Below, one piece after another: positions 2,471 through 41,319 of a DNA stretch of 44,717 bases; position 1 is the first letter of the stretch, and each line of letters begins with the position of its first letter. The DNA comes from Nemertoderma westbladi (Eukaryota; Animalia; Xenacoelomorpha). The stretch lies in contig JAUCBJ010008457.1 of the NCBI GenBank assembly GCA_032718475.1, positions 1 to 44,717 on the forward strand, in the 5' to 3' direction. The translations under genes and the position numbers were made by a program. Below the pieces are notes generated by a model. It was not told the origin of the DNA, did not search any database, and saw only the letters and a list, made by a program, of their open reading frames with translations.

Positions 2471-3039
2471 CGGTGTTTTATAGTCGTTGGATTGCCGGGT
2501 TTTGCTACGTGGTCTATGATTGGCTGATTAATGGCTGAAGGCTATTATCTTAAGAAGTATTCACTTTGGAATGATGAAGTTTATTTTAAAATGTTCTCTG
2601 CAGTGTTTCCGATCCCACTAAAGACATCCAATTGCTGTATGACTACAGGTTTCTCGCTTTTGGTTGTTTGAATATGCTTGAAAATTTTGCATATAAAATA
2701 GGCAGTTATTTTTTATGTCCTTTTATTTGACTTTTTTTGTCATTTTTTTTTACGAATTATGCATAATGACTTTTGTTGTCCTTTTAATGACTTTTATTGT
2801 CCTTTTAATGACTTTTTATGTATGTATTTCTTCAAACTGTCAGACTGCTGATTTCTGGACTGTCAGACGGTTGATTTCACTATGCCTGTGCCAAAACATT
2901 CCATGATTCCATGATTTATAGACTATGAGATTTCCATATGCGCCTGTGGTAAAAAGACTCTATATATTTAATAGTTTGTGGTTGTTGTCGATAATCGATT
3001 ACCACATGACGTAGCAAAACACTCATTTTATAGCTAAAA

Positions 3040-3689
3040 ACAATTACCAATTGATGGAAAGGAGCAGGTTAAGGCCGAGTTTTCTATCCAAAACAATAAA
3101 CAGTCACTTTACCAAATCAGGGAAAGGAGCATGTTACAGAGACGGGATTTTCTAACCAAAACAATAAACGATCACTTAACTAATTGAGGGAAAGGAGCAG
3201 GTTACAGAGGCGGGATTTTCTAACCAAAACAATAAACGATCACTTAACTTATTGAGGGAAAGGAGCAGGTTACAGAGGCGGGATTTTCTAAACAAAACAA
3301 TAAACGACCATTTAACTAATTGAGGGAAAGGAACAGGTTACAGAGGCGGAATTTTCTAACCAAAACAATAAACGATCACTTAACTAATTGAAGGAAAGGA
3401 GCAGGTTACAGAGGCGAGATTTTCTAACCAAAACAATAAACGATCATTTAACTAATTGAGGAAAAGGGGCAGGTTACAGAGGCGGGCCTTTCTAACCAAA
3501 ACAATAAACGGTCACTTTACCAATTCAGGGAAAGGAGCAGGTTACAGAGGCGGGATTTTCTAACCAAAAGCAATAAACGATCATTTAACTAATTGAGGGA
3601 AAGGGGCAGGTTACAGAGGCGGGATTTTCTAACCAAAACAATAAACGATCATTTAACTAATTGAGGGAAAGGAGCAGGTTACAGAGACG
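3040..3689. repeat. 68-bp minisatellite, about 9.5 copies
   Basis: Unit gggaaaggagcaggttacagaggcgggattttctaaccaaaacaataaacgatcacttaactaattga recurs at 3120, 3188, 3256 and onward. Confidence 0.95.
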
Positions 3690-4052
3690 ATAAAACTAAT
3701 ACAGTAATAGGCCTAAATTATGTGAAAGGTATATCCACATTTTCCACAATCCTGCTATCCAGTTTGGCCTATCAATTATTTAAAATTTATTAGCACAACC
3801 GGTAGGCCTACCATTACCGTATTTAAATGGTAGGCTACACAGTAGGCCTATAGCAGTACCGGTGCCGGTACTAAAATACATAAATACCTGCTTTATACCT
3901 ACCTACATCTGTACATACAATACATCAAAATAGTGCTATATATACTAATACCGGTACTGATATCCTGAGAGAACAGCAGTAGAGAAACCGGTAGCATGGA
4001 ATTAGACTTTTGGACATAAAAAATCAAAAAAAAGGACAAAAAAAGGATTTAA

Positions 4053-4780: not shown

Positions 4781-5423
4781 TTAAACGGACAATAAAAATT
4801 ATTGCGTATAAAATATCAAGAAGAATTAATTTTTGCACAAGGAAATAATACTTAAATGCTCTCTGAATACACCTTCATAGGTTTTCTTTGTGATTTTAGA
4901 GCTTTAAAAGTTCAATATGAAATTTTTTATTAAATAATACTTTTTATGTTTTTTTGTTAATTTGAGTATTTCTGTATTTGCTGGTATTATATTTTGGGTG
5001 TTTTCTTTTGTTATTAATTTTGTTATTAATTATTTTTTATTAATCCAGGGAATATCCTTAGTAACTCAGGGTCCTCACTCACTAATTCAGGGACCTCCCT
5101 TGTTAGCTCAGGGTCCACCCTCGTTAATTCAGAACCTTTTGAATAATCTTTATTTATATTATAAGGTTTTCAAAGGTGCTGAATTAATTGATTGAAAATG
5201 GTTTTAAATGGCCACATTGTAATTCCATTTCGTGTGATGCGTTTTGTGCCACAAATTTTTGTAGTATTAATTGGGGGAGGGGGGGGGGGGGGGGGTCTAT
5301 GCGCCTGTCGATTTATACGAATCTACAGGCGCAACAAGAGTATTTGGAACATTATCATTATGCCCATGTATAGTTATACAGTATATGTTAGCCTACAGTA
5401 TAAACAAAATATTCTTAACAAAA

Positions 5424-6380
5424 TCGGAAGCAGGACAATTCGGTCCCGGACAATTCGGTCCCGGACAATTCGGTCCCATTAATTTTGTGATTTGGGACCG
5501 AATTGTCCGGGATCGAATTGCCGGGACGAAATTTAATTGGCACTACTGTACTATATAAGGGTGAATGTTCTAGAACCTTAATATATATCATTATATGGTA
5601 GCTAGTGTGTTTTTTTACTATAGCTAGTATTTTTTTGAAAATAAAAAATGTACTTTTTTTTGTTAACATTATTAGTTATGGTAGCTATTATGGTTTTTTT
5701 ATGGAGTTTGTGAATTATTTACTAGCTAGTAATAAATAGTATGTATTTAAAATGCGTTTTTTTATATATTGCGTACGTATACTGTATGTGTTGTTGATTG
5801 GTTAACAAGCCTAAATTATTATCTTAGATAATAGCTGGATCTCATTCAGGGACGGTAATATTGTTGGTAATTAATATAATCAGAAACAGTTTAGGCCTAA
5901 TTCTGAAATATCAATGTTTTCACAAGTATTTTTATAATTTCAAGGAAATGCTAGCTAGTAAAAAAAACACTAGCTACACCTTAATAAAAAATATATAATA
6001 ATGTTCTCGAACACTACCAATAACAAAAATAAAAAAAGTATAGTATTTTTAAAATTTCAAAAAATTATAGCAAGTAAATAACACTTAGCTACCATAAAAA
6101 AAATCTCTACTAATGTTCTAGAACATTCACCCCCAATATCAAAAAGCACTAAAAAGCTGCTATCAATTCGGTCCCGGACAATTCGGTCCCGGACAATTCG
6201 ATCCCGGACAATTCGGTCCCGGACTATTCGGTCCCGGATAATTCGGTCCCGGACAATTCGATCCCGGACAATTCGGTCCCGGACTATTCGGTCCCGGATA
6301 ATTCTGTCCCGGACAATTCGGGCCCGGACAATTCGGTCCTAGGACAATTCGGTCCTAGGACAATTCGGTCCTAGGACAAT
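5424..6380. repeat. Foldback-like repeat: 15-bp tandem arrays (ggacaattcggtccc) in both orientations around an AT-rich palindromic core
   Basis: Forward x3 at 5433-5477, reverse x2-3 at 5494-5528, forward x~14 at 6165-6380. The core gggtgaatgttctagaac (5559) is inverted at gttctagaacattcaccc (~6115-6133). A related core recurs at ~28750-28990. Confidence 0.8.
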
Positions 6381-7719: not shown

Positions 7720-9503
7720 TTCGAATGCGGATGCTATACCGCATGCTATTGGCTATAGGCATCCATATCCCATATTCCTATATGGATGCTGTATGGCACA
7801 GGCGTTCAAGGATATACATAGTGGGAAGTATGGTGTCAGATACCTGAGCGTTCTTCTGGGAGGGATTGACTTTAAATAAATAGCCTGCTCAGGATTTACC
7901 AGAAGGACAACCCTGACCACCCCTAATATATCGATATGGTTCAAAATCCATAATGGAAGGATGTATTCTGACATTGCTCAATGCATGATCGATGGGAGGA
8001 CCTTTAAGACTAGCATATCACGTATGTCACGATGGAAATGTACATGGTAACAGCATTTGGGTGTTGAATGCTTAAGATGCTCATCGCAACCCAACCCAAA
8101 TCCTTCAATAAATTTGGATGGGTTGAGCTAGTAGTCCATGCATTCGCAGCTGTCAACAACATATTCCCCAAGGAAGTCCAGGCGGGTAAAGCGCAAACCC
8201 ACTGGTATCAACATGGACCAGCAAATATCGGCATGATGAAAGACCGACTGAAAACAATTGGTATGGACATATCGTTAAGCGACAATGTGGTAATGCCAGG
8301 TTTCGAATACATCGTTTCTGAGAAACCCTCTCTGGAATAGTTTGATATTACACAGCCCAAGCAAATTGTGGCGAGTGAGCCTGAAAATGATTCGAGTGTC
8401 AGAGTTCCGCTTTAGCGAAGGAGTCCTCCTACCACTTCCGACAACTGGCAGGCATTCTGGGTCTTCCATCAGCAATGCGAGGCTTCGTCGCCGTACTGGA
8501 TGCTGGGTGGAGAGAACTGGGTTGCAGAGATTGCGAGCCTCCGCCTTCAACAGGTAGAATGCAGTGTAGAATTCCAAGAGCAGCCATTCCCCACCCTAAT
8601 CCCCAAGACAATCACCAACATCATGCGGGTAGTTGCCACGAGATCTGATGACGAAGCCAAATGACCATCCACAGTACAAGCGGCTTCAGAGTTTACCCTC
8701 GACCCGATGAGAATCACTCACTGGTATCTGGAGCAGTCGCAATGGGTTACCCAACAAACTTAGTATACCCAACAAAGACTCGTTGGTTATAAACCAGGAT
8801 TCAAGATGGAGGACCATATGCGAACCAGTTTATGATTTGGGAAACAGTCTGAGAAAATTCTGCGAAAACGTAACAATAAAAAGATATATTATCAAGAGAA
8901 TGATGCGTTACAGATCAACCACAGGCCCCTGGAAGTCAGGGAGGTTTACAACTACTGTGTGACAAACAAGGGAGTGCTGTACTGTATGTACTGAGCCCGT
9001 CCAAGCCATGATATGAGAGTTTGCTCAGCTCTATGCACATGCGGATTCCGTGGCCACTCGGTGGATATTATTAAGTGCCAAAGAAAGACAGAGTGGCAAT
9101 AATCGCCAACTTGGCAATGTTCACCAACGTCCATATAAAGACGTGAGGTCGAAATAGCCTGACAATGATGGGTGGGAAAAGAGTAAGGGTTACTTCACCT
9201 TCCCCATGGATCTCAATAGGGAGAAACTCCCTTTTAGTTGAGAGAACCTACAAACCCCGAGGTAAGCAGCTTGACTTGCCTTAGCACCAACCCTGAAAGG
9301 GATTGCGAAGGGCGAGCAGTATGAAGAGGAAAGACATAATACCGACCCGATGGATTGATATGCAGCAGCACTGTTGCATTCTCTCACTGACCGACAGACA
9401 CCCAATGGACAGATGGGTGGCGCCAGTTAGTTTAGCACGAGCCTGAAAAGGCATCGGGGCATGATGACACTAGGCATCGTAAGGGATAGAACCGATGGAC
9501 TAC
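7720..9503 (+). pseudogene. Decayed coding-like relic of unknown origin (possibly viral), interrupted by the BEL insertion and continuing at ~25587-25690
   Basis: GC-richer island with long plus-frame stretches broken only by sporadic stops (e.g. ORF 8068-8340 reads on through single stops to ~8830). No recognisable motif. Confidence 0.35.
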
Positions 9504-10702
9504 TGTACGCGCTTTTGAAGACCTTTAGCAGTTTAACCTGCCAAAATTTATATGTCTTTTGGTTTATAAATAGACTTTAACATATGACAAGTATTTAATA
9601 CCAATAAACACAACATTAGCCGAAGCCAGCCTAGTGCGCGTCCATTCACCCGCTGGATATACCCGGGAGACTGGATTCGGAGGGCTTAGATTTTATTGCA
9701 GTGTAAGCTTACTGTATTATTCGATTGATCGTTAATAAATAATTTCTGACGAATATTATTCACTTTCGGGAAATATTAACAGTTCCTTTAGGACGTGGCG
9801 CTCTATCTAGGTAAACAGAGATATGACTTATACTAGACACAACGGTAAGACGGTAAGGCTTATGATTCACGTATGAGGCGCATTCTTTAGGAAATGCTTA
9901 GTTATCAGCCACAATCATGCACACTACCGGTACCGCACAATACTGCACACTAATCTGCCGACCGTCAATGAATTTTATCATACATAAAGAGAACAGCAAT
10001 TGACTCATGTAGTGCCTATCAAATAGCATTAAATTCACTACAAACCACGATAATATAAGTCGCAATCGCTATATGTAACCTGTCTCTCTAACCTGTAGTG
10101 TATCAAGAAAATTGGGAAATTTGGGTTATTTATCGATGTTCTCCAAGTAATAATATTCAACCAACTGATACAAATAATGACAACAGTAAATAGCAGTATA
10201 ATAATGTATGTTGCAGTGACTTGCACCGTGCACTGAACCGATAATGTAAGACTGAACTGATTGGGTTGCACTGATAACAGTTATACGTTCTATAATCTAA
10301 GCCTACTAATGTTTCTTCTAAAGTCTGAAACCAATTGACTCCAGAGCTGGTGTTCTTGGCCTAGATAGAAACAACAAAACTATAACACTGTAAGACTGAA
10401 CACGCCTAGTACGATCTGTAGAATATCTCCACGTCTAAAGTAAAAATCGCTCTGATTGGCTGTTAAGCTGAACAAAGAACCATGTGTCCAACGGCCGTTT
10501 CCATGCCAGCAACCAGCTGTCAGATGTCGTAATCTGAATCATCAAGGCTACACTGTGCTAGAGGATTTGACGCATTGCGGGTTTTGTGTCTTGCCATGTC
10601 CTCCAAAGCACACATATAGAAGAACAACTTTTATGTCCGTTAAAACACCCACACGGTACTTTGCGGGCAAGGGGACTGATTATATCCGCAAAAGCTTTTA
10701 CA
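9504..10702 (-). repeat. 3' LTR of the BEL/Pao element (1199 bp)
   Basis: TG...CA termini; near-identical to 24383-25581 (4 substitutions found by eye). Preceded on the minus strand by a short purine-rich tract (gggagcag), a weak PPT. Confidence 0.95.
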
Positions 10703-10779
10703 CTGCTCCCAGAAAATGGGATTCAAGTCTATAAATATACAAAATCACAGTTTCTAATATACGTAAATACTCTAAACAG

Positions 10780-13485
10780 TTAGTCTTTCTTGCGTGGACG
10801 GCGTTTACACAGTTTTTTAAAGCTGGCCAGAGTCTTTTCCTCTTTGGGGCGAGCCACTTTACAAGGAGGGCTATAACTCCTGGGTGAAGGGTGCAATATG
10901 ATTGCATCAGAGGGTGTAGGATTATGGTCGGTGTATCCGCCGGTCGAAGTGCCGGGTTGGTTGACATCAACGTCGGGGGAGAGGGGTCTAACGGCCTTTA
11001 GAGCGCGTTTTAGGACGGCCGCTCTTAAGGGTCCTTTACGAGTGGTCTGAACGAGAGCCGTGGGTGGACCATAGGCAGTCAGAAACTTCCTGGGTTTAAT
11101 GGTTCTTTCCAACTCGCGTTCGCGGGCTCGGTATTCGTAAGGCCGTCGATATACTTCCTGTAACTCGGGGTGTGAGTTAACAAATAAGTCTCCATAGTCC
11201 GGATCCTGACGGATAAAATTGATTAAGTTATAGGAATGAAGGTCGCTAGGATTAACACTCCTGAGAAATTTGCGTACGAATTTGGTTGAAATACATTCTC
11301 CGACGCGCTTCAGTAGTTCGTAACTCGATATGCGTGATTTCTGTTCGACAGAAGCGAATAGATAAGGATGGAACGCATAAACTCCTTCGTAAGCGCGTCC
11401 AGGATAATAGCGATGGCGCGAATCACAATGTAAATCAGCGTTCGCTTCCCAAGCTCTGATGTAACGTAGTGTGATCATTTCATCTACGCTTTCCAAATCG
11501 TGATTAAAAGGGCAATCGAAACTGGCGTGTCCCTTTAGTTGACAATGGTGACATTGAGTCATAAATTGAGGGCAAACCGCAAAAATATGCAAGTTATTGA
11601 GTCTGCAATATGCGCAATAAATTTCCATCGCCAGTTGTTCGTGAAAATAGGAACAGCGGACGTTTGTGTCCATGGGCGTAACATGGTCTCTCGATGCGCA
11701 TAACCGACAACGTTGCCGAGAAACATAGTTGGCATGGCGATAATCGTACGCAGTGAGACACTGTGGACCTTGATACCATTCTAGGATGTAATCGTTGTCG
11801 CTGTTCCGGGGCGCGATAGGCTGAATCTCCTCAGATTCTAGGCATATTGGTTCGTCTTCCCAGTGCATAGCTGAGGTGGGCGTGTCTGTCTCTTCAAGTG
11901 GACCTATTGTCTGAATTTCCACGACAGAATAACCGGTGGGGATTCGAGGTCTTTGTATAACAGAGGAGTGCAAGTTCGATATACAAATCTCTTTGAAAAT
12001 GGCAAATCCAGCGCTATCTAACTTCTCTGCAGCTGAGTTTCTTAGGCTGAGCTTGGTCAAAGCGCGGTCTTTAAATTGGCTATCCACGTTGCGGAACGGG
12101 GTTAAAAATCGCCGGAAACATTCGAAGCGGATGAATTTATTATGTTCATCTAGCTTAGCGAGTTTGGTCCCAAGTATTAATGGATGGGCGCGTATAGTAC
12201 GACTGCACACATCGGCTAGCCAACCGGAAAGTGCGGTGTTTTCAAAGATCGTGTAGATAGCTAAGGAGGGACGGAGTGGAACACTCATGAAGCTATACAC
12301 GGCGCCAGGTGCGGTCAATGGTCCATCAAAGTATAATCGAGAATAATGGTCTCCGTATACTTGTTGATAGTTGATGGGATTTCCGACTTTGAAATTCCAT
12401 CCGTATTCCTGAAAGGCAAGATGTCCGATGGAAGTTCGTTGCACCTTTGTAATGTTGCTGGACGTATTAGCATACATGGTGCGAAAGAAACCTCGACCTT
12501 CTGCCCAGGGAGCAATCAGCTGCGTATCCACGAAAGGATATGGGATATTTTCCATATTCCGAAAGTCGTTTTGGAGATCTCCATAAACAGCTGAGCCGAT
12601 TTTAAGGATTCTTTCGTTGAACAACATCTCGAGTACGGGCTGGGGTAACATCGATCCATTGATACCCATGGCCGGTTTGCGTTCGGTGTCAATGACGTAA
12701 CGCTGCGCGAGTTCGAATTGTCCATGTCGGAGATTCTTTTGCGTTTCGGTGAGAGTTTCAAAGGAATAATCAATCACGTCGGAACACGCTCGAGTAAACA
12801 CGTGGGTAGAACCAGCTAATCCGCGTATGTGGATCATGCGCGTAGTTCCTAGTTCTCCGACCGGAACGCTACCTTCATTATCGTAGGTGACAACTCCATA
12901 CATCTCAATGACATTAAGAGTTTCATTCCACTCTTTGGTGGCGTTCTCTAGGGTCATCCCTACTGGATGCCACAAGGTGGCGCATTGGTTAGCGTCAGGG
13001 AGATCACTATACTTCATGTGCCGAGTGGTATACGTCTCCACATTTCCATATCTTTGTATTTTCTCTTCTTCAAATAATACATCTAGATTCCAATGGACTA
13101 ATCGAGTTTTAATAAATCCATCGAGATTATAAGGAGGTTCTATATCCTTCTCGATTCGAGAAATGTTATATGGTTTTCTGAATGAGTTTACCTTTACTAA
13201 CTGATCCAGATGTTTCTGCAATTGTTCGAGTTCGAAAACGTCTAGAGGATTTATTAGTGGTAGAAACTTTAAATTATGCGTCGGGTCTTCTGGTTTTACC
13301 ATATAATATTGAGTCAGATTAACGTAATAAGGGTGGTCTTTGATCCCATAGAACGAGTTCTGTAAAGGTCTAGCGCGTATGTTGACATCATGTACCATAC
13401 GACGGACAAGATCCGCTCGATTGTCCGGAGGTTCAACGAGTATACCGTCAACACGAGCAGCCTCGATTGGCGGACGCTGTAACAT
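10780..13485 (-). CDS. Element-encoded 901-aa protein: DEDDy (WRN/EXD/mut-7/RNase D-like) 3'-5' exonuclease domain, three CCHC zinc knuckles and a basic C-terminus
   Basis: Exo I VVTYDNEG (D202/E204). LPQPVLEMLFNERILKIGSAVYGDLQNDF...FVDTQL matches the WRN-exo pattern LP..L...l....ilKvG....D......vDl (D303). TSIGHLAFQEYG fits SL..L....lG. Exo III-like PLRPSLAIYTIFE (Y411/E415). Knuckles CRLCASRDH..C, CAYCRLNNLHIFAVC, CHHCQLKGHASFDC. Tail FKKLCKRRPRKKD. No signal peptide or TM segment evident. Confidence 0.8.
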   Translation of the reverse strand: MLQRPPIEAARVDGILVEPPDNRADLVRRMVHDVNIRARPLQNSFYGIKDHPYYVNLTQYYMVKPEDPTHNLKFLPLINPLDVFELEQLQKHLDQLVKVNSFRKPYNISRIEKDIEPPYNLDGFIKTRLVHWNLDVLFEEEKIQRYGNVETYTTRHMKYSDLPDANQCATLWHPVGMTLENATKEWNETLNVIEMYGVVTYDNEGSVPVGELGTTRMIHIRGLAGSTHVFTRACSDVIDYSFETLTETQKNLRHGQFELAQRYVIDTERKPAMGINGSMLPQPVLEMLFNERILKIGSAVYGDLQNDFRNMENIPYPFVDTQLIAPWAEGRGFFRTMYANTSSNITKVQRTSIGHLAFQEYGWNFKVGNPINYQQVYGDHYSRLYFDGPLTAPGAVYSFMSVPLRPSLAIYTIFENTALSGWLADVCSRTIRAHPLILGTKLAKLDEHNKFIRFECFRRFLTPFRNVDSQFKDRALTKLSLRNSAAEKLDSAGFAIFKEICISNLHSSVIQRPRIPTGYSVVEIQTIGPLEETDTPTSAMHWEDEPICLESEEIQPIAPRNSDNDYILEWYQGPQCLTAYDYRHANYVSRQRCRLCASRDHVTPMDTNVRCSYFHEQLAMEIYCAYCRLNNLHIFAVCPQFMTQCHHCQLKGHASFDCPFNHDLESVDEMITLRYIRAWEANADLHCDSRHRYYPGRAYEGVYAFHPYLFASVEQKSRISSYELLKRVGECISTKFVRKFLRSVNPSDLHSYNLINFIRQDPDYGDLFVNSHPELQEVYRRPYEYRARERELERTIKPRKFLTAYGPPTALVQTTRKGPLRAAVLKRALKAVRPLSPDVDVNQPGTSTGGYTDHNPTPSDAIILHPSPRSYSPPCKVARPKEEKTLASFKKLCKRRPRKKD

Positions 13486-13815
13486 AGGGGCGTCAGCGAT
13501 AAGATTTTGTGATCCTGTATGATATCAACCGGTTGGGGTTGTATCGTCGCGAAGAGTTTGTCTCCGAAATGTGGAACCATCGAGGGATGACGGACGGTTT
13601 TAGAGTAGAGATCTGTCATAAGGATTTGAGCTTCGGGTTGGGCTAAAGCGGCTTCTTCTCTCTCGTCCAATTTAGTGTGTTTCTCCTCGAGTAGATTTTC
13701 CTCCGCTTGTCTCAAACACAATTTTATTCCAGAGAATGTCTGGGGACCTAGGATCCTTAATTCTATAAAATTGTCTTTTAAGAGTATCGGTAAGCGCTGC
13801 GATATCTTAATTGAC
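13314..13815 (-). other. Upstream overlapping reading frame; possible N-terminal part of the extra ORF joined by frameshift or splicing
   Basis: ORF 13314-13721 stays open upstream to an acceptor-like ttttctAG near 13816. It overlaps the 901-aa ORF start in a different frame, and that ORF has a stop 14 codons upstream of its ATG. Confidence 0.35.
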
Positions 13816-14522
13816 TAGAAATTTTAAAGGATCTGAATTTTACAGATTTTAATAAATATTAATTAATATTTAAGATGGGCACCGATTTATTCCAGAACTT
13901 GTCTGGGGACGTTAACCACTGATTCTAGAATTTGTCTTTCAAGTATATCGGTGGGTGCCGCGATATCTTAATCGACTAAAATTACAGATGGTCAAAAGGT
14001 TTAACAGATTTATTTGCGTTTTACGCTACTGTTATAGGGACATCACGCTACTATATGTATTATTTAATATAAAGTAGAAGAGCAATATCGCACGAAGCAA
14101 TGTCAGTGTGAAGAGGCAAGTCGTTTCCAAGGTCTACCCAGAGCTTGGTTTAGCCGAGACACGAGGATCTGAACTTTGCATTCCTAATACTCTGCCTACC
14201 AATAATACTTAAATATAGTAGGAGCTTTATTGTACTTTAATAAGTACTGACATGTCATCTTACTGTAGTCTCGTATTTATAATATAATACGGACAGTAAG
14301 GAAAAAGAAAGAATTATTTCTCGCCGTCATATTAAATATATATTATGTGTAATTACGTAATAAACACTAATATATTGCACTAACCTACTAAATAATCTAA
14401 AATAACATTCTACTAAATAAAATTAAATAAAATGATTATAATAAAGTACATAATAACGTTCGCATATAAAAATATAATAAAAATAGATAGAATAATATAG
14501 TCATGCACCCACTCCAGACGTA

Positions 14523-17500
14523 TCATGTTGGGGAGTCCCTAGATGTTTGAGGAATTAGGGAGGTGGTCGTGGGAAGAGTGTCTTGCCTTCCATAGTTTCC
14601 GGAGAGTTCTCGGTCTCTTTCCAGTAAACATAAACGACCAACTGGGCGGTTGAGCTGTTGCGTCTCAAAGATTATGCCTGGCTTCTTGAAGTTACGCCGC
14701 ATGACGACGAGTTCTACCGAGCACAATAAACCATCGTCCGAGATGTGAGTCTCGATGATACGACCTGTCTGCCACCGTTTACGTGGAAGGTCTGAATCTA
14801 CAATAAGCACCATATCTCCGGCGCTGACGTTTTCTTGCTGCGCAAACCACTTAGTTCGAAGTTGTAGCGTGGGCAGATAATGTTTCTCGAAATGGTCAGC
14901 GAAATGACGGGATAGCAACTGCATAAGTTGCCAAGTTCAACGGCAGTATTCGTCTCCGTCGGCAATCTCCGATCGAGGGAGCATGGCTACAGGTTTCTTC
15001 AGTAGAAAGTGCGCGGTTGTTAGCGCTTCCAGGGAATCGGGACTCGATGAGACTGGCATAAGCGGTCTCACGTTGAGATAGGCAGCTATTTCCTCCATTA
15101 ACGTCCGCAAAAGTTCGTCGGTGAGATACGCGCGGCATGGCACTATAAAGTGAAATGCGGTCTTGACACTTCTAATTAATCTCTCCCAACTTCCTCCCCA
15201 CCAAGGGGCGTCGGCGGCGTTGAAGGTCCAGCTAGACGCTGTTATCCTTAGCTGATCGTCCACCTGTCTTTGGTTCCAGTCCTTCACGTAAGCCTGGATT
15301 TCGTTGTTGGCACCAATGAAGTTCGTTCCCTTATCCGATCTCATGGTATTACTAGTCCCGAAGCGAGCGATCTGTCGGCGTAAACTTAAGACGAAGCTGT
15401 TGGTAGATAGATCGTTCACCATATCGAGATGGATGGCTCTACAAGTCATGCATACGAAGATGACACACCATCTCTTGACTATAGTCCTAGCACGATATAC
15501 TTCAATAGGGCCAAATAAATCTACACCAGTATTAGTAAAAGGTGGTTCATAGAAGCTTACTCGTTCCCTAGGTAATTCTGCCTCTCGCTGTGTTAAAGGC
15601 CTACTGAATGCTTTCCTACAGGGTATGCAGTTCCTAAGAACTTGGTTCAGAGCTCTACGGGGTTTATAAAAATAATAGCGAGTTCGGATTTCGCTAAGAA
15701 CTCGTTCTCTACCAGCATGATAAAGTTTACTGTGAACATCTACAATCATCTTGATTTGTACTTCAAGATTTCTAATGAGTATGGGGAATTTAGTGTCAAA
15801 GGATATTGGCGCATTGGTGAGTCTTCCTCCAACACGTATTAACCCATCTATCATTGTGCTAGAGAAGCGATCCCTTAATCGCATCTGCGGATTACTCAAC
15901 AACAGGAAATACTTATCGGAATCCTCATAGCATTGCAGGAGTCTCAGTATCTGCTTATTGGTTTCTTCATGCTCCTGGTAACTGATTTTCTCCTTTAGGA
16001 ACCGGTCGGATGTCTTATATTTGGGTAAATTTTTAATAACATGAACTTGCGCAGATGTCAATGGAGCGGTATCACTAATGGTCTTCGTCTTGGAGTAGTG
16101 ATGATGAAAACATCTCCTTAAATATGTGACGGCTTTACAGAGCCGATTCCAGGAACTGTAGTGATGCATTGCTCTCTGCAGCAGGGGTGAGATTCTTTGC
16201 GAGACGTCTGGTATTCCAGATTTCCAATCTCTATCTCTAATTTCCACAACAGACTTATTTGTGGCGAGGGATTGTGGATCCGAAGCATCGTTTCCGGAAG
16301 TATGTAATACAGATAGATCGATCGTCGGTTTAAATAACTTCGATTTACTCGCCCGGGTTTTAGGTTTGACTTTCTCCGCTCCCTTGGCTTGTCTAATCTC
16401 CGCCGTAGTAAGGTGAGGAGGCCATTCATCCTCTTCCTTACTCAGGAAGTCGGGTCCACCCAACCAGTCTGGAGTATCTATCAGTTCCTGTGGAGTCGCT
16501 CCCCTGGAGGCGATATCGGCTGGATTAATCGTACCAGGGCAATGTCTCCATTGATCTATCTTTGTGCGACTAAGAATAATAGCTACCCTGTTAGTAACAA
16601 AAACGCTGAACTGACAGACTTCATTGGTTATATACTCCAACACGAGTAAAGCGTCGGTCCAATAAACAGTTTTCTCCAGTGGATAGTCGATTTGTTCTGT
16701 TACATTCCGGCCGATGGCTGTAGCGTATAAAGCCGCTTTTAACTCCGCTCGAGGAACCTTTAACTTGTTGTTAATCAATGCCTTAGAGGTAACCAAGGCG
16801 ACTTTGATTCCATCCGGAGTTTCGACTCGCAGATATGCTACTATACCTATTCCCATGTCGCTGGCGTCTCCAAACACATGGAGTTGATAGGAATACGTAG
16901 GGAGAACATGACCAAAATATGCACGGGAAATTACAAAGCTCTCGATGGCAGGTAGAGAATCTTCCCATTTCATCCACCTCGTTAACAGTTCTCCCTTAAG
17001 TGGATCGTCCCATGAGTGGTTTTCAAGCCACATTTGTTGTACTAAACTCCGAGCAATCAATATAACTGGGCTAATAAATCCCAATGGGTCGAAATAAGTG
17101 CTCAGGATACTTAAACAAATCCGTTTGGTCCGAACTGGATTATCTCGCTGTTTTAGCTGAAAAAACAGGATATCTCTTTCTGTGTCCCACTTCAAGCCAA
17201 GCGTCTTGGTTTCTGGAAGATCGTCCTTTATTAAGTCTAGGTCTTTCGTTCCTCGGTCTTCTACCGGTATCACTTCCAGAAACTCACGGGAGTTCCTGGT
17301 GAATTTCGTCAGTCGAAATCCACCTCTTTTCAAACACTCTACTGTTCCTTTCGCGACATCAATGGCTTCTTCTACTGATGGAAGGGACTTTAAATTGTCG
17401 TCCATGTATATATCGCGCTTGATGTTGTCTATCACCTCTTTGGAGAAGGCGTCTCGGTTGTCATTCGCAGTGGTCCGCACCACGGAGCAGGCGTTGGAAG

Positions 17501-18900
17501 GGCTTGATATGATCCCAAAAGCCTGGATGGTCATCCAGTACTCTACCGGTTTCTGGTTGAGATCTCCTTCAGGCCACCACAGAAATCTTAGGCTGTCTCT
17601 ATCTCTATCCAGCGCCTTGACTTGTAAGAACATTCCTTCTATATCGGAGGCGAACGCGATGGAATATTGTCTTAATCTTAAAAGTATTCCCAACAAAGAT
17701 TGGAGTAAGTTGGGTCCTGGTAACAACTCGGAATTGAGGGATTGGCCCATATATAGAGCGGAGCCATCGAATACGACTCGTACTTCATGGGGTTTACCGG
17801 GTTTGGGAACGTAATGATGTGTTAAGTAATACGTTCTCTCAGTTACTGGTGTTCCTTCCAGTACTCACTCCGCGTATCCCTTTGTAATAAATTTCTTCAA
17901 CTGAGTTTGGTACATTTCTTTAGCTGAAGCATTAGCCGAAAGGCGTCGATGTAATTGAGTGATTCTTTTCTCTGCCAAGGGTCTGTTATTTATAAATCTA
18001 GGTTCTCGTTTTCGAAATGGTTGGCCGATTTCATATCTACCTTGATCTTTTAAAAAACGTGTAGTTGTTTCCTGGATTTGCTTGGCTCTTTCTTCTTCTA
18101 TCGATACGGCCTTATCGTATGAATTGGGCTCTACCAATTCTTGAGTAAAGAATCGTACGGCGAGTTCGTCCCGAGTTCTAGCGTTGTAGCGCTCTATCTC
18201 ATCATTTAGTTCGTCATTGTAATCAATGGGTCCCGATGGGCGAATCAGTTGACATAGGTTCACCTGGTTTTTCCAAGTTTTGTTTTCTGTAAGTAGGTCG
18301 ATTGTGTTCTCTTCATCGAAGAGTTGGTAGATGTCGTCATTATCTGAGGAGTATGGTGTTCCCTCAGTTAGTTCGTCCACCTCACTGCTCTCCACTTCCC
18401 AATCATTTACTTGGTATATTCTTTCTTTCTTTGAGAGTTCTGCGGGAAGGGCCAGTAAAGTACCAACCTACTCTAGTTCTTACCGCATAGGTTTGTAGTG
18501 GCTGCGGTTGAGCAGGCCGTTTCTCCAATGTCTCGAGCGCCTCATGCGCGTTTTGGCCGATGAGTATTTGCACTCCAGAATAATCTGTCTGGAATTGAGG
18601 TATCTTAAGCTGTTGGATGCTCTCGTCCTCGTCCCAGTTATAAGGTTCTACTTGGGTAGTAGCGAAGTTCTTTATAGCCACCATTTTTACTGACCTTATA
18701 CTTTGTGCTCCTAATTTATCCTGGGGGGTGGACAACGCACCTACCTACATAGTAATCTGCCGTTATGGTAGATTTCCAAACCTGCATAATTCCGGACATA
18801 TTCAACTAAGTTTGGAATTTGGGTTGTCCAGCAAAGATATCTTCGGCTAGTTCTTGATCGATGAATGTTCCCGTGCTGCCGGAGTCAAGGAGGGCGTTCA
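14523..18900 (-). pseudogene. pol: BEL/Pao pol (aspartic protease, RT, RNase H, integrase, C-terminal DUF5641-like region), disrupted
   Basis: PR ALLDSGSTGTFI; RT VRVVFDGSA, SDIEGMFLQV, YMDD; RNase H LHVFGDASDMGIG, YWTD; IN H..H/C..C, GVDLFGP, RSDKGTNF, WERLIRSVK; C-terminal WQTGRIIETH.SDDG. Stops at 18806, 17865 and 14937; frameshifts at ~18745 (4-bp duplication) and ~18400. Confidence 0.93.
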
Positions 18901-21900
18901 CTATGTAACTTTTGTTAGGACCGTGAACTCTTACCTGCACTACAGGAAATTCTCTGATTCCTACGTTGGAAGTTGGATCTTTCCAAGATGGTTGTCTGTC
19001 AAAGGTAGTTGGGGGGAACTCATTGTCGGTGTCCTTTTCGTAAGTAAGTGCTCGATATACTGCGGTATTTATTAGGTAACAGGATTCGTTGGCGTCGGAG
19101 AATTCGTCAGTATAGAATCCTTCCATCTCAGACTCTTGATCAGTGTCATTTACATCACTGAATTGGACATGTAGTTCGGGCTCACTTACCTGACTCGGGT
19201 TGTTTCGTTCGAATTCACTGTGTAACAAGATGTGATGTTTCGCACCGCACTTTGCACACTTTACGTCGGAGTAACAGGTTCGCCGTTGGTGTCCTGGTCT
19301 GAGGCAATTATAGCATAACCGCTTATCCCACATGACTTCACGTCTGTCTACCAGGGATTTCTTTAGGAATTCAGCATATGCACTCAAACGGTGGGGCCCG
19401 TCGCACAGCGCACAGTTTGGTTTGATGTTACTCACCTTACCTTGGGTAACGTGATGCACTCTCGTTCTTTCTTCGGGCTTTCTTCCGTGCATTCTGTTAG
19501 GAGACTGAGGAGGAGTCTTGGCAACCTGTTCTCTCCTATCGTTGGTTCGAGCCTTGTATTTACTTACGTCTTTTGAGGTTTTGTTAACGTAGTAAAATCT
19601 GTCAGAGTCTTTTCCACTGTCCTCTTCTTGAGAAGCTTGGCTTTCGCCGTCGTCAGTGTAACACACTGGTGTTACTCTTCTCCTAGAAACGGGTTTCTCA
19701 CTTACCTTATTTTCCGATGTTTTCTCTCTGGACTGCTTTATGAGTTGTAGTTTTAATTCACCATCTAAGAAGGACATGAGATCAGCCATGGTAGGGCCTC
19801 GTCGTTGCTGCTCATTCATATACAACACTTTCTTATCCCAGCGTGTACATACTCCACCCTTTGGTAAAGTAGAGACTACGGCTCCAATAACCATGTAACT
19901 CTGATATTCATGAGACTTACCTAACCAGTCCAATTGTCTACAGATCTCCTGAATCTCAGGAGTTTCTACTTCACTAGCAGTATAGATGCGTGTAGGCTCC
20001 ACACCTTACGCATGTAATACTTCAGACCTAACAGGTTGACACAATGTTACAGGAGGTATTGGTATACCCTTTTGTATATTGACTAATTTGTCGCGTTCCA
20101 GCGCAATACTTTGCTGCACTTCTTGCAATTCTACCCTACTTTCCCTTACTGTTCCCTTGAGTTGGTGGACAGTCCCTTCTAAATCTCGGATCTGCTGTGA
20201 GGAACATTCTCGGTGCTCTATCAGCTGCCCGAGCAAGAGACCCATCTCCCGCCGTCCCTCATCAACCCACTCGACCGCCGAAGCAGGAGTCGCCAACATA
20301 GTAGCGGGCCGACGTGGGACGACGGGAGACAAATCTTTGATTTCTCTCTCGGCGTCAAGAACCGGGACATTCTCTGGGACTGCTCCACCGGGTGCAAACA
20401 GTTTCGTACTATGTAAAGGGAATTTGGTTGTAGGTTCGGGAAGTACAGGGGCCTCTCTCACCGAAAGGGTGTTTTCGATAACAGGCTTAACTATTTCAGG
20501 CTCATCTACTATTGTAGGGAGTCTTTTGACCTTAATAATTTGGTCTGTGGGTTCTGTACTACCTAAGTCTGTGCTAGCTAGTTGTCTTCTAACAGCTGGG
20601 GGCAAATCAGGCAATTTGTGACGGTGAGATGTTTTTCTACGCCTGCTTAGACGAGATCTATTTCCTCCGCCTTCAGGATCGGTGGTCTCGCCTTCCTCCG
20701 ATGATGTGTATCCTTGGCGCTTGGGAGTAGATCGACTCATCATCTGCATTTGACTAGCAGTTAACTGTTTATTTATGCAGTCTTGCGTCTCTTGAAGATT
20801 TTCCAACTCCAGTTGGGTGGTCTCTTCCGACGCTCTCTGTTCTGCTTCTGCCAATGCCATTGCTGCTGCTGCTTTTGCTGCTTCCACTGCCGCTGCCGCC
20901 TTTGCCGCTGCTACTGCCTTTCTGTCCTCTATACGTTTTTTCTTTACTTGTTCTTCTTGGACTCTAGCGAGCGGAGTTTTTCATCAAATTTAGCTTGGTT
21001 TGCAGCTAACATTTCCGCATCGATTGAGTCCAACACAAGCTTGGCTCCTTCACTATTGGGGCGAAGTCCAGCCAGTCGTCTCCTCAACTCTTCATCACCT
21101 AAGAAACGTTGATAGTCTGACAGATAGATGTCGATGGCGTCTCTCGTTCGCGGTCTCTCTGCTTTCACTTCGCTTTCCACTTGAGAAAAGGTGGCATCGG
21201 TTGATTCTTCATAGGTTGGTCGCTCAGCCAGCTGGGATTTCCACTGGGCCGTTTCTTGAACTTTGAGACCTATCCGCTGGAACCAAGTCTTGACAGCAAC
21301 TTGCAGCGACGTGTCCTGTCTTCTTTTGGAAGTTTCCTCAAAGGCTGATAGGATTAATCTAATGCGTAGGGTTCTTTCGCGTACTTGATAAAGCAGCTCT
21401 TCCTGCTCTTGAGGTCCTTGGGGTTGTCGAAACAGTTGTTCTTCTAATCGCTCTAAGGAGCCGAAGAATCCCTGCACATATCCTGCTGCCGACCTCTTCC
21501 AAACAGCTGGATCCATCGTATCTTTAGTCACTCCCATCCTGTGTATGTCTTCCCAGGTAGCTTCAGATAAGTCTAACGGGGATCCGGGTCCGGGAAAGTT
21601 CCATTGTGACTCGACAATAGACATCAATTCTTCCCTGGCGTATCCCGCATAACTATCTTGGGTCGCTCGCTTACTTCTCGCCCAATCGACTTGGTGTTCC
21701 TCCACCGCAATCAATATCGTTGTTAGTACTGCGGCAGGAAGAGTGAGAAGGGGATCCGAATAGGCTGTATCCGCCATCTTCACTCCGCGTTCGGGGGTCA
21801 GCTCTACAGTATCCGAACTACTGGAGCTATCGGGTCGCTGGGAACGAGTTTCTTGACTAGGATGTTGCTGCTGTTGGACAGCTGCTTCTTGGTTCCGTTT

Positions 21901-22095
21901 GACCTGGGCCCGAGTGCCGATGATAGACCTACGGTGTTGGATTAGCCTAGGGTCTGATACTACTACTGGAGGGATGACCTTTCTTTCAGTAGGAGGTGAG
22001 CTGAACCCTTTTCTTAATCGCTCCACACAACTATCTGTGTCACAGATGGTTGTATCGATTAGACTGTCTGACAGGTTTTGCTTAGTGTCAGACAT
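18901..22095 (-). pseudogene. gag: BEL/Pao gag, disrupted
   Basis: Coiled-coil N-terminal ORFs (20944-22095, 20006-20887) and the BEL triple knuckle CALCDGPH(RLSAY), CYNCLRPGHQRRTC, CAKCGAKHHILLH. Frameshift ~20940, stop at 20006. Confidence 0.88.
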
Positions 22096-23453
22096 GCTTA
22101 GCTATACAGTTGAATGCTTACTGCTATAGTTACAGTTAAAGCAAGTCTAGTAATTCAGTATGACCGTTGGCCTAGTACCGGTAATTTATTACAGTATATT
22201 AGAATACCGGTATACACTTATAGTATATATAAGTATTGTAGACTAGGTTTGTCGCAGAATACCGGCATATAATTTTAGCACAAATATATATAAATATATA
22301 ATAGGCCTATCGTGAATACCGGTATGCAGCTTACACTTATAGTATATATAAGTATAATTATGAACTAGAATTAATTACAGAATACCGGTATGATTTCAGC
22401 CCAAATTTATAGAAATAAATATAATAAGCCTATGGTAAATACCGGTATGTCAATTATTTTAGAATAATTGAATTTCTGAAATTTTAGGGTTACTTGTTTA
22501 CTTTAACTTACTTTATTACCGTTATTTAAGCAGTAGTCCAACTGATATTGAGACCTAGTTGTTGTATGACAGGCCTACTCGCTTATAAACCTTTGAGTTG
22601 ATTTATAATAGATATATATATATGTATATACCCGTATGAGGGGTTTTGTTACAATATTGAAATAGATGTTACTATTTCTGGGAAATAATCACTACACAGA
22701 AGCTGTGCGCTCTCAGTGAAGTGCTACTTATTGGACACTAAAACAGATAATTCTACTTCCTAAGTTACTTATCTACGAATTACTTACGATACTGGTGAGA
22801 TTAATTCTCTAACTAAACACAACAAAAAATATTACGTACGAAATTTTAGGGTAATTTTACAGGAAGTCTACAAACCAGCCTAACAAAGGGTTAGAATTCT
22901 GGTTATTACAATGGACAGGGTACTACGGTATTTGAAAATAATAAGTAGTAGTAAATATGTTGCGCTGTCCAGATAGGAAAAATACCACTGTCTGACGACC
23001 TATAGCCGTATCGCTATAGGTACTACGTTATGTATCACGGAGTGTTCCTACCTGGAAGTTAATTACCGCGGAGTACCAGATCCAACGTGCCTATTAACCA
23101 CTTTACAACACAATACACTGCCTACACACTAATTACTTTCGGAAAGCACTGTACACCAAACCCTAAATTAGGTACAAGTACTTATTAAAAACAGATAACT
23201 AGCAGTTAAATATACTTGAACAGTTAAAAGAACCACGGCATCTGCTGGAGTGACCGGAGCACTAAGTCACCAGTCTTTACCTACGCCAAGCAGCCCGTGT
23301 AGTACCGGGGTTAATTTAACTATAACGGTATGTGTAACAAGCACAATTACTGTAGGAATAAACTTGGGGACATGAATGTTGCGAATAATCGCATAAACTC
23401 TGAATAATAAATATTACGCTACCCGTACAGAATACTCAAACAAAATACAAACC

Positions 23454-23984
23454 AAACGCTGGCAGACTACCATCAAGCCTAAATAAACTACAGTATGTGC
23501 AGATTCCAAAATGGTTAGTTAGTATGCGTTCTAACACGGTAGTACGACTTATTCTTTAGGAGGGGGTTGACCTTACAACTCAAGATGCCCCAACTTACTA
23601 ACTGGCACTTTATCGGACAGACTCTACACACGCCGCAATCTCTCCAGACCCAACAACAGCCAGACAACAATACAGCCTACAAAATATCTGAGTAATAACT
23701 ATTACGGTACCTGAACAGACCACACAAACAAACACAGGCTAAAACGCTGGTAGACTACTATCAAGCCTAATTAAACTACAGTATATGTAGATTCCAAAAT
23801 GGTTAGTTAGTATGCGTTCTAACACGGTAGTACGACTTATTCTTTAGGAGGGGGTTGACCTTACAACTCAAGATGCCCCAACTTACTAACTGGCACTTTA
23901 TCGGACAGACTCTACACACGCCGTAATCTCTCCAGACCCAACAACAGCCAGACAACAATCCAGCCTACAAAATATCTGAGTAAT
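23454..23984. repeat. 243-bp direct duplication in the 5' leader of the BEL element (23454-23696 and 23742-23984)
   Basis: Near-identical copies from aaacgctgg.agactac to aaaatatctgagtaat. Confidence 0.92.
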
Positions 23985-24168
23985 CTGAGCAGACTTACAC
24001 GTCTTCTGCTCAATATTAACTTACATGTAAATAAAACCGACAGAAATAAGTAAAATCTCAATAAAAAACCAGGGCGGCCATTCCCTGATTAAGTACTAAG
24101 ACCTACCGGTATACAATAATCAAAATCGAATAATACTAATGTACTTATACTGGAAGTACCGGTTAGGA

Positions 24169-24320
24169 CAGTTGGGCCTACAGACCTACAGCAGTACCGA
24201 TTCTGGCAGTTGGGCCTACAGACCTACAGCAGTACCGGTGCAAGCAGTTGGGCCTACGGACCTACAGCAGTACCGATTCTGGCAGTTGGTCCTACGGACC
24301 TACAGCAGTACCGGTTCAGG
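24169..24320. repeat. 38-bp tandem repeat x4 next to the 5' LTR
   Basis: Unit cagttgggcctacagacctacagcagtaccgattctgg with alternating 3' variants. Confidence 0.92.
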
Positions 24321-24382
24321 TTTACCGGTTGACCGGTACTTTCAACTTTATTGCTTACTGCAATAAAGAAGATAACTGTTAT

Positions 24383-25581
24383 TGTACGCGCTTTTGAAGA
24401 CCTTTAGCAGTTTAACCTGCCAAAATTTATATGTCTTTTGGTTTATAAATAGACTTTAACATATGACAAGTATTTAATACCAATAAACACAACATTAGCC
24501 GAAGCCAGCCTAGTGCGCGTCCATTCACCCGCTGGATATACCCGGGAGACTGGATTCAGAGGGCTTAGATTTTATTGCAGTGTAAGCTTACTGTATTATT
24601 CGATTGATCGTTAATAAATAATTTCTGACGAATATTATTCACTTTCGGGAAATATTAACAGTTCCTTTAGGACGTGGCGCTCTATCTAGGTAAACAGAGA
24701 TATGACTTATACTAGACACAACGGTAAGACGGTAAGGCTTATGATTCACGTATGAGGCGCATTCTTTAGGAAATGCTTAGTTATCAGCCACAATCATGCA
24801 CACTACCGGTACCGCACAATACTGCACACTAATCTGCCGACCGTCAATGAATTTTATCATACATAAAGAGAACAGCAATTGACTCATGTAGTGCCTATCA
24901 AATAGCATTAAATTCACTACAAACCACGATAATATAAGTCGCAATCGCTATATGTAACCTGTCTCTCTAACCTGTAGTGTATCAAGAAAATTGGGAAATT
25001 TGGGTTATTTATCGATGTTCTCCAAGTAATAATATTCAACCAACTGATACAAATAATGACAACAGTAAATAGCAGTATAATAATGTATGTTGCAGTGACT
25101 TGCACCGTGCACTGAACCGATAATGTAAGACTGAACTGATTGGGTTGCACTGATAACAGTTATACGTTCTATAATCTAAGCCTACTAATGTTTCTTCTAA
25201 AGTCTGAAACCAATTGACTCCAGAGCCGGTGTTCTTGGCCTAGATAGAAACAACAAAACTATAACACTGTAAGACTGAACACGCCTAGTACGATCTGTAG
25301 AATATCTCCACGTCTAAAGTAAAAATCGCTCTGATTGGCTGTTATGCTGAACAAAGAACCATGTGTCCAACGGCCGTTTCCATGCCAGCAACCAGCTGTT
25401 AGATGTCGTAATCTGAATCATCAAGGCTACACTGTGCTAGAGGATTTGACGCATTGCGGGTTTTGTGTCTTGCCATGTCCTCCAAAGCACACATATAGAA
25501 GAACAACTTTTATGTCCGTTAAAACACCCACACGGTACTTTGCGGGCAAGGGGACTGATTATATCCGCAAAAGCTTTTACA
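24383..25581 (-). repeat. 5' LTR of the BEL/Pao element (1199 bp)
   Basis: TG...CA; matches 9504-10702; flanked by TSD ACTAC. Confidence 0.95.
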
Positions 25582-25699
25582 ACTACTGAGAGACTTCTGA
25601 CGGCCTACTGACCGAATTATGACATATATGGACAAACCAGGCAGATGGGATTCACATGTAGTTTGGGAGGTTCAAATCCAAGTAAAATAAAGTCATCTG

Positions 25700-33849: not shown

Positions 33850-34089
33850 ATTCTTTTGAATACTGAATACTTTTACTGAATCGCAGAGTATTCTGAAGTT
33901 CCCTAGTCTGCCGCTAGAGGGTGAAATTTCTCAAAGTGAAAACCTGATCTTATAGACGTCTAGACATCTAATATGGCATTGGCTATACTTTACCGATGAG
34001 GTTGGTCGACCCGCAGTTCTCCAGTAGTCTGCTGCAAAAGACTCGGATTTAAGACCTGAGGCACTCCTCAAGCCTCAAGTTTTAGGATT

Positions 34090-34234
34090 GAGCCACAGAC
34101 TATGCCTCACTGAGGCACAGACTATGCCTCACTGAGGCACAGACTATGCCTCACTGAGGCACAGACTATGCCTCACTGAGGCACAGACTATGCCTCACCG
34201 AGGCACAGACTATGCCTCACTGAGGCACAGACTA
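34090..34234. repeat. 22-bp minisatellite x~6.5 with internal palindrome
   Basis: Unit gaggcacagactatgcctcact (tgaggca...tgcctca). Confidence 0.93.
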
Positions 34235-34242
34235 CAAACATT

Positions 34243-38700: not shown

Positions 38701-39049
38701 TGGTTACAGTTCTTTGGTTGCCTGGCAACAAGCTTTCTGGGCAGTATTAGACTCTTTCAATTTATTTTTTGCAGCATATAGGTAAAATTTAATGCTGATC
38801 AATTTTTTCACTGTTTTCCGGAAGGTTTATAGTGTTTTTATAGTGTTTTCCCTATGTTTTACGGTGATTACTTAAGGGGTGCTATGCGAGGAGTACATTT
38901 AGGATTGTCAATTCAGAGAAGTACATGTGTTAAATTCCCTGCTGATCAATGTTTTCACTGTTTTCCGTGTGTTTTACAGTACTTTTCCTATGTTTTCCTA
39001 GTGTTTTACTGTTTTACTAGTGTTTTCCTAATTTAGAATCATCCGATAG

Positions 39050-41285: not shown

Positions 41286-41319
41286 ATAACTTGTTTTTTT
41301 TTTACTACTAACTTCCCCG

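Follow-up and report, generated by a model that had tools for sequence, protein, structure and literature searches.

A 16,078-bp LTR (long terminal repeat) retrotransposon of the BEL/Pao superfamily lies on the minus strand of contig JAUCBJ010008457.1 (assembly GCA_032718475.1) of the xenacoelomorph Nemertoderma westbladi, within the stretch of 44,717 nucleotides analysed here (the window), and carries a third gene, ORF3, between pol and its 3′ LTR, the usual place of an envelope gene. Residues ~180-433 of the ORF3 protein are predicted to belong to the RNase D/DEDDy family of 3′-5′ exonucleases, and three CCHC-type zinc knuckles follow. ORF3 belongs to a multi-copy BEL/Pao family, in which it has long been present as a constrained gene under purifying selection. 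An earlier note on this DNA had implied that cargo of this type is new; it is not, because DEDDy-type ORF3s have been published for the gypsy-like LTR retrotransposons Juno and Vesta of bdelloid rotifers, which share them with Terminons (PMC5408684), a case that two reviews also cite (PMC5718144, PMC6338049). The present element extends DEDDy cargo to a second LTR superfamily, BEL/Pao.

The ORF3 protein and its nuclease family

ORF3 (10780..13485, minus strand, as are all features of the element) is a frame of 901 codons without internal stop that encodes the protein P0001. It sits between the last pol frame, which ends at 14523, and the 3′ LTR, has the orientation of gag-pol and stops 77 bp before the LTR, exactly as the earlier note had described it. 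A chance origin of the frame was rejected. The protein has no membrane segment, its highest 19-residue Kyte-Doolittle mean being 1.10, and no fusogen match in Pfam or PDB; ORF3 is therefore not an envelope (env) gene, which the note had also argued, and that reading was set aside.

The nuclease-like domain occupies residues ~178-433 (12187..12954), with an insertion at residues ~232-260, and is separated by ~160 partly acidic residues from the knuckles at residues 593-658 (11512..11709). All three knuckles that had been announced for this segment are present, but only the third (CX2CX4HX4C, residues 645-658) is canonical; the first reads CX2CX4HX9C and the second CX2CX5HX4C, and the knuckle profile PF13917 matches ORF3 below its cut-off (E 0.0042). 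Their likeness to the knuckles of the element's own Gag is not significant (352 of 2000 shuffles as good). The basic C-terminus (10783..10821) is a candidate nuclear localisation signal.

Profile methods place the domain with RNase D. Against a hidden Markov model (HMM) built from 31 PF01612 domains, 30 of them of RNase D type and one Pol I, P0001 reaches 17.7 bits and its 648-residue homologue, P0002, reaches 13.5, the top scores among 300 shuffles being 1.1 and -0.2. With the hand-anchored P0001/P0002 pair as query, hhalign matches the PF01612 set at 94.5% (E 7.7e-8 over 78 columns). The NCBIfam RNase D model matches residues 282-327 far below its cut-off (domain E 0.0024), and when 201 bacterial genomes were searched with the domain, 23 of them had weak matches (E <=0.1), six of which lie inside listed PF01612 matches and use the same query block. 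In the ESM Atlas, residues 160-520 adjoin PF01612 clusters at 0.93, a level that calls for caution, since 4-10 of every 100 shuffled proteins also attain 0.9, and all of the ten best family matches fall in one family or clan. These sensitive tests agree with one another but rest on the same block, Exo II. An HMM of 41 stand-alone bacterial exonucleases gave no score for ORF3, and at the Pfam gathering score PF01612 does not match P0001, while P0002 reaches 11.9 bits against a cut-off of 23.6. Matches at E 2 or worse were all that tblastn returned against phages, and PHROGs gave nothing significant. As an observation on the side, the nearest named Atlas clusters of the nuclease domain are giant-virus (Nucleocytoviricota) proteins of 361-380 residues, a lead on origin only and no sign of transfer.

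The closest type within the family is not the one first proposed. For profile A6, which was seeded with RNase D rows covering the Exo II block only and whose register was chosen, Egalitarian is the second-best PDB match, aligned from Exo I to DTQ (E 6e-5); WRN and EXD2 match weakly, as does the structure of Trypanosoma brucei RNase D (TbRND; 7c45, E 0.011). The best profile relatives are thus RNase D and Egalitarian, not the WRN/EXD2 type of the earlier note. Compared with bacterial RNase D, Rrp6, Egalitarian, EXD2 and Nibbler (PF01612), ORF3 shares the Exo II block, significantly so against RNase D, and differs in its Exo III Glu, in an insertion of ~30 residues after the third strand and in having no detected HRDC domain. 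A DEDD-family fold for ORF3 is very probable. The core of the earlier proposal, a predicted DEDDy-family nuclease with CCHC knuckles inside LTRs, is borne out by the RNase D HMM score and by the layout of P0002.

P0002 is the sole true homologue among 1.84 billion protein representatives (E 2e-6, 29% identity to P0001), and no close host-type homologue of ORF3 was found among them. Like P0001, it has a nuclease domain, then an acidic linker, three knuckles and finally a basic end, and without guidance it lines up with RNase D at all three Exo motifs. Its knuckles resemble those of P0001 (2 of 2000 shuffles as good), and the tails behind the knuckles show no significant likeness (1989 of 2000). 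P0002 is a singleton on a 9449-bp contig, known as a protein alone and not as part of a retroelement; its best Atlas match is a euglenozoan cluster combining PF01612 and zf-CCHC (0.86), which is a lead only. Word-based protein searches at near or shorter lengths returned nothing for P0001 and only itself for P0002, and neither metagenome nor viral contigs yielded a related locus when scanned with ORF3, P0002, alignment A3 and pol. A further candidate homologue, P0003, was rejected as a low-complexity chance match.

The WRN/EXD-type motifs quoted from the sequence are all present and in order: YDNEG at residues 201-205, LP..D at 279-303, FVDTQ at 318-322 and PL-x6-Y411-x3-E415. Their reading as DEDDy Exo motifs holds in part, in that profiles support the family placement, but Exo III has Glu for Asp and Exo I has rivals in D266/E268 and D239. 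Exo II D303 is invariant in alignment A6, which was picked because it shows the D202 register, and the assignments of D303 and of the conserved D320 in DTQ (12526..12579) are secure. In Exo III (12241..12255) the Tyr is kept and Asp is replaced by Glu in both P0001 and P0002, whose alignment fixes the position. The probable Exo I is D202-x-E204 (12874..12882), with D266/E268 (12690-12682) as its rival. As read by eye, D202/E204 are preceded in both P0001 and P0002 by a predicted helix and a Gly; 17 residues further on, at the RNase D spacing, comes a strand that shares its His, Leu and Gly with P0002. In the model computed from A6, where pLDDT is <50 for most of this part, residues 198-201, 215-223 and 225-232 form strands, and D266 falls in a helix. 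D202/E204 are favoured because an Exo I at D266 would allow no space for strands 2 and 3 ahead of the Exo II block, and because D266 aligns with RNase D strand 3; we regard the assignment of D202/E204 to Exo I as likely.

The ORF3 nuclease is probably catalytically active. The alternative is a dead or weak nuclease that would serve as an RNA-binding adaptor in the manner of Egalitarian or EXD1, for transport, localisation, packaging or as a small-RNA decoy. It draws on the Glu of Exo III, on the default MAFFT register, which takes D239 as Exo I and leaves no second acid there, and on Egalitarian being the only top A6 match aligned through Exo I; the purifying selection described below fits binding as well as cutting. 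However, all four acidic residues and the Tyr are kept in P0001 (in the D202 register) and P0002 despite only 29% identity, the changes around D202/E204 are synonymous with no listed replacement, and the match to Egalitarian comes from a profile seeded with RNase D rows in a chosen register. An adaptor is accordingly a rather unlikely account of ORF3.

Copies of the element and selection on ORF3

Six public sequencing runs, from four studies and under two organism labels, contain the stretch or part of it. In four runs every one of the 30 bins that reach from the 3′ LTR across ORF3 and the spacer into pol has coverage, and many of the contigs are <95% alike. Over 841 bp of the nuclease domain, run X1 yields 3505 contigs, 724 of them at >=99%, followed by 1330, 1130 and finally 321 at <90%; contig depth was not taken as copy number.

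Differences among the copies are strongly skewed towards silent changes. Among the best-supported 40 of 162 differences in the nuclease domain, 36 are synonymous and four are not (V192, E258, N276 and N344), and 35 of the 40 fall at third positions. The synonymous share expected under the same change spectrum is 31.5%, which gives a crude omega of 0.05 and a binomial p of 2e-14 that is overstated, because the differences are unphased and share ancestry, although the direction is clear. None of the four listed replacements affects a candidate catalytic residue, synonymous differences surround D202/E204, and no indel at >=15% occurs in the nuclease domain among the copies. In a wider comparison, 11 of 16 differences in ORF3 and six of 11 at the end of pol are synonymous.

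ORF3 is not bounded by terminal repeats or a target duplication, and this, together with its many diverged copies and the synonymous excess, shows that it is not a nested insertion; that reading was rejected. Diverged contigs join the ORF3 start to the spacer (13220-13652, 13416-13707), and the loose contig ends in the stretch from the stop to the polypurine tract (PPT) are variants of the same sequence. It could still be argued that ORF3 rides along passively, as a host gene captured recently or a nested insertion that does nothing for the element, on the grounds that its CpG ratio and that of the spacer (1.24 and 1.27) exceed those of pol and gag (0.96 and 0.79) and that no listed contig bridges ORF3 to pol. 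This idea is already largely refuted by the omega of ~0.05, the lack of terminal repeats or a target duplication around ORF3, the contigs that carry the ORF3 start into the spacer, the nature of the loose ends and the lack of a close host-type homologue among the 1.84 billion representatives, and we consider it very improbable. None of the outcomes that the earlier note had named as fatal to its proposal was seen: ORF3 recurs in many related copies, its crude omega is not neutral, and profiles point to RNase D, although structure searches gave no significant nuclease match.

Contig joints that skip most of ORF3 (10942-13678, 11178-13247) were observed in one contig each of runs X1 and X3, with 26-27 letters on the short side, and in one contig of run X5, with 114. 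They suggest that the family includes derivatives without ORF3.

In other copies the N-terminus of ORF3 probably extends further than it does here. An open frame of ~98 codons in another phase (13520..13814, with an ATG at 13619) runs into ORF3, the chance of such an open run being ~0.004 for one frame, and a one-base length difference occurs at the junction of the two frames in three of four runs (7%, 79% and 42% of depth). The region 13520-13814 is probably the true 5′ part of ORF3, frameshifted near 13520 in this copy, and translation may start elsewhere than at the ATG at 13485.

Element architecture and the primer site

The two LTRs (5′ LTR 24383..25581, with AATAAA at LTR position 1006; 3′ LTR 9504..10702) are 1199 bp each, run from TG to CA and differ at four of 1199 positions. 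A 5-bp target-site duplication, GTAGT, stands on both sides of the element (5′ copy 25582..25586, 3′ copy 9499..9503). Behind the primer-binding position (24372..24382) lies a long 5′ leader (22096..24371) with a 38-nt tandem repeat at 24155-24344 and a 288-nt duplication at 23399-23984. The gag and protease region (18809..22095) is in three pieces, owing to a frame change at ~20950-20980 and a stop at 20006-20008; BEL-type nucleocapsid knuckles and a protease motif are present, and Pfam gave no capsid match. The pol region (14523..18744), in four pieces, comprises reverse transcriptase, a PF05380 region, integrase and DUF5641, with frame changes near 18745-18808 and 18406-18467 and stops at 17865-17867 and 14937-14939. 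Between pol and ORF3 lies an A+T-rich spacer of 1037 nt (13486..14522) that contains a 74% imperfect duplication (13723-13849 and 13886-14011) and acceptor-like AG sites at 14413 and 13815. A short purine-rich tract directly 5′ of the 3′ LTR (10703..10710) is the candidate PPT.

The class of the element follows from pol, which matches PF05380 (E 5e-36), the integrase zinc finger PF17921 and DUF5641 (PF18701) and is therefore of BEL/Pao type; its domains stand in the Pao order of protease, reverse transcriptase, RNase H and integrase. The element shares with the Belpaoviridae (Semotivirus; PMC8742986) this domain order, the LTR-gag-pol layout and a short PPT. In contrast, it measures 16 kb rather than 4.2-10 kb, its third gene encodes a predicted nuclease rather than an env-like protein, and it has no tRNA-Arg/Gly primer site.

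In this copy gag-pol is split into seven pieces by three in-frame stops and three frame changes, one of which could be programmed. These six breaks compare with only four differences between the LTRs, which suggests that most of them predate the insertion and that the copy likely moved in trans; they are probably older than the insertion for the most part, with assembly error as the alternative source. A broken gag-pol beside an open ORF3 also invites the view that the host keeps the element or benefits from it, ORF3 serving host defence or RNA metabolism, for example against viruses, and a role in antiviral defence has been suggested for accessory enzyme domains carried by retrotransposons (PMC6338049). 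However, the insertion is young, judging from the four differences in 1199 LTR positions, and the selective signal extends across many diverged copies, as expected with selection at the level of the element. A role for the host is thus improbable.

A primer site complementary to a tRNA 3′ end, which is typical for BEL/Pao and not diagnostic, is missing: the first 120 nt of the leader contain no TGG. No tRNA or Rfam match was found in the window. The first 11 nt of the leader are the exact complement (11/11, offset 0) of LTR positions 419-429 (25153..25163 in the 5′ LTR, 10274-10284 in the 3′ copy), which makes this 11-mer a candidate self-primer. The match, which was found post hoc, is equalled in six of 5000 dinucleotide LTR shuffles at offset 0 and in 13 of 5000 at offsets 0-4, and four of the ~2250 other leader positions also reach 11 nt. 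A neighbouring stem of 4 bp at the LTR end stands beside this pairing. In folds starting near the 11-mer, the LTR/leader helix has a probability of 0.94-1.0 with 15 or 60 nt of leader and of 0.00-0.02 with 150 nt, and it falls to 0 if the RNA starts 20 nt earlier.

This pairing resembles the self-priming signature of Tf1. Self-priming of Tf1 reportedly proceeds without such a nuclease gene, its own RNase H making the cut. In Tf1 and Tj1, too, the primer-site sequence is complementary to the element's own LTR; the elements concerned are Tf1, Tj1 and LTR elements from fungi to vertebrates, and the available text names no BEL/Pao element among them (PMC4600332).

An active ORF3 nuclease could serve reverse transcription, either by trimming a single-stranded 3′ flap up to the 11-bp LTR/leader duplex so that it becomes a self-primer or by cleaning cDNA 3′ ends. 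RNase D trims tRNA 3′ ends, and Frame et al. in 2001 reportedly described a BEL element, Cer13, with an RNase PH-type exoribonuclease proposed for primer processing, a different fold on a similar theme. The missing tRNA-type site, the 11-nt complement and the stable helix with a short leader agree with such a role; the rotifer authors suggest that the 3′ ends of element RNA are processed (PMC5408684), and the DEDDy domain of Dada transposons has been proposed to process DNA ends (PMC3706591). However, the helix collapses with the longer leader, and a separately translated ORF3 has no built-in route into the particle. A role in reverse transcription is the main rival of the preferred reading given below and is rather unlikely.

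Other repeats share the window with this element. On the plus strand lie fragments of a second BEL/Pao element at 36337-40674 (PF05380 36337-37092, integrase core 39696-40319, DUF5641 40282-40674) and a reverse transcriptase-RNase H fragment of a further LTR element, presumably gypsy-like, at 41312-42118 (PF17919, E 9.5e-21). A large inverted duplication at 34238-35848, with arms 34562-34880 and 35246-35564 that are 95% alike, is accompanied by a GIY-YIG-like frame (E 3e-4) as well as by a tandem repeat of 22 nt at 34067-34242 and is presumably Penelope-like. Repeat arrays, tandem and palindromic, whose units measure 15, 68 and 161-164 nt occupy 5391-6369, 3004-3706, 26401-27083 and 30140-30976.

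Possible function and relation to known systems

Our preferred reading, which is tentative and falls short of even confidence, is that ORF3 would be a trans-acting RNase D-type 3′-5′ exoribonuclease that counters host RNA silencing. Of its parts, a substrate of RNA rather than DNA is quite likely, and counter-silencing rather than another role has slightly less than an even chance. The message of ORF3 would be separate and probably spliced, like those reported for the rotifer ORF3s. D202, E204, D303 and E415, together with Y411, would form a two-metal site. The knuckles would grip single-stranded RNA (ssRNA) and feed its 3′ end into the active site, in the way that the trypanosome RNase D knuckles handle U-tailed guide RNAs. 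The substrates could be small RNAs involved in silencing, the precursors of such RNAs, or the non-templated 3′ tails by which element RNA is tagged for decay, and the protein would act in trans, possibly in the nucleus. Action in trans is consistent with a gene that is separate from gag-pol and open beside its six breaks, and with the listed copies that skip ORF3. In a wider form of this idea, which we consider less likely than not, the BEL/Pao lineage may have replaced env and tRNA priming by its own knuckle-guided exoribonuclease, which would either destroy silencing RNAs or tails in trans, as a suppressor of piRNA/siRNA silencing, or trim the self-primer.

Several observations weigh against counter-silencing by an active ORF3 exoribonuclease. 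The Glu of Exo III is non-canonical, and the D202 register of Exo I appeared in only one of seven, two of 30 and one of 16 MAFFT settings; local alignment of the D202 block to P0002 is equalled by 469 of 2000 shuffles, and a position-specific scoring matrix ranks D266/E268 first (14.3) and D202 second (8.0). P0001 as a single sequence has no exonuclease match in Pfam or PDB, and only the Exo II block is significant standing alone. The AlphaFold models are poor (mean pLDDT 30 from the single sequence and 43 from alignment A6), and fold searches with them gave no significant nuclease match: the top Foldseek rows include REXO2/Orn, EXD2, Nibbler and the RNase H domain of Prp8, none of them at E 0.001, one viral row at E 9e-4 has an rmsd of 37, and the best VIA-align hit (Z 4.2) is to unrelated helices. 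No arms race is apparent from the strong conservation of ORF3. That ORF3 stays open while gag-pol is broken has an estimated chance of ~0.12 at equal break density and is thus not significant. No RNA run is listed among the public runs that contain the ORF3 stretch, run X4 being only guessed to be RNA, and the authors of the rotifer paper favour auxiliary replication roles for the DEDDy ORF3 (PMC5408684).

The nearest precedent is the rotifer ORF3 (PMC5408684), which, as described, is likewise a separate RNase D-like frame between pol and the 3′ LTR without a membrane segment, with its catalytic residues kept apart from one Asp-to-Glu change. The two differ in their carriers, Juno and Vesta there and BEL/Pao here, and in the motif, which reads DEED there, whereas ORF3 has Asp in Exo II and Glu in Exo III. 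ORF3 is also at least 901 residues long with three CCHC knuckles; in the rotifers a Cys-His-Cys motif alone is described, for two elements, Vesta2 and Vesta5. Evidence that selection acts on the nuclease comes from the present element, the rotifer study having made no such test for its DEDDy frames. The comparison is one of descriptions, not of sequences; no rotifer ORF3 surfaced in the protein homologue searches with P0001 or P0002. ORF3 is of the same kind as the rotifer genes but, with its different motif, is not grouped with them by descent. Capture from a host gene, as the earlier note's proposal implies, is a conjectural origin, and the rotifer paper argues for exchange among retroelements (PMC5408684).

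Within BEL/Pao, env-like genes are the only third genes named in the ICTV profile (PMC8742986), and the same holds for the available text of the BEL/Pao survey by de la Chaux and Wagner, where the word exonuclease does not occur, and of a 2026 eLife paper. No BEL/Pao element with a DEDDy gene was found in the literature searched, subscription journals and Repbase lying outside the search.

TbRND offers a working analogy only. Its knuckles bind U-rich ssRNA, raise RNA binding and strongly raise cleavage, and its overexpression depletes small guide RNAs (PMC7797062). As in ORF3, an RNase D exonuclease domain is followed by several CCHC knuckles; however, TbRND is a host gene with four knuckles, whereas in ORF3 the ~160-residue linker separates the modules.

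The knuckle module of ORF3 points to ssRNA ends as the substrate, and the nuclease domain is under strong purifying selection. To our knowledge, few counter-defence proteins are known from animal retrotransposons. The DEDDy ORF3s of rotifers were left without a function in the paper that describes them (PMC5408684). For this cargo, the BEL/Pao element of N. westbladi provides a defined protein with candidate catalytic residues and two separable hypotheses, that ORF3 may counter silencing or that it may help to make the primer.

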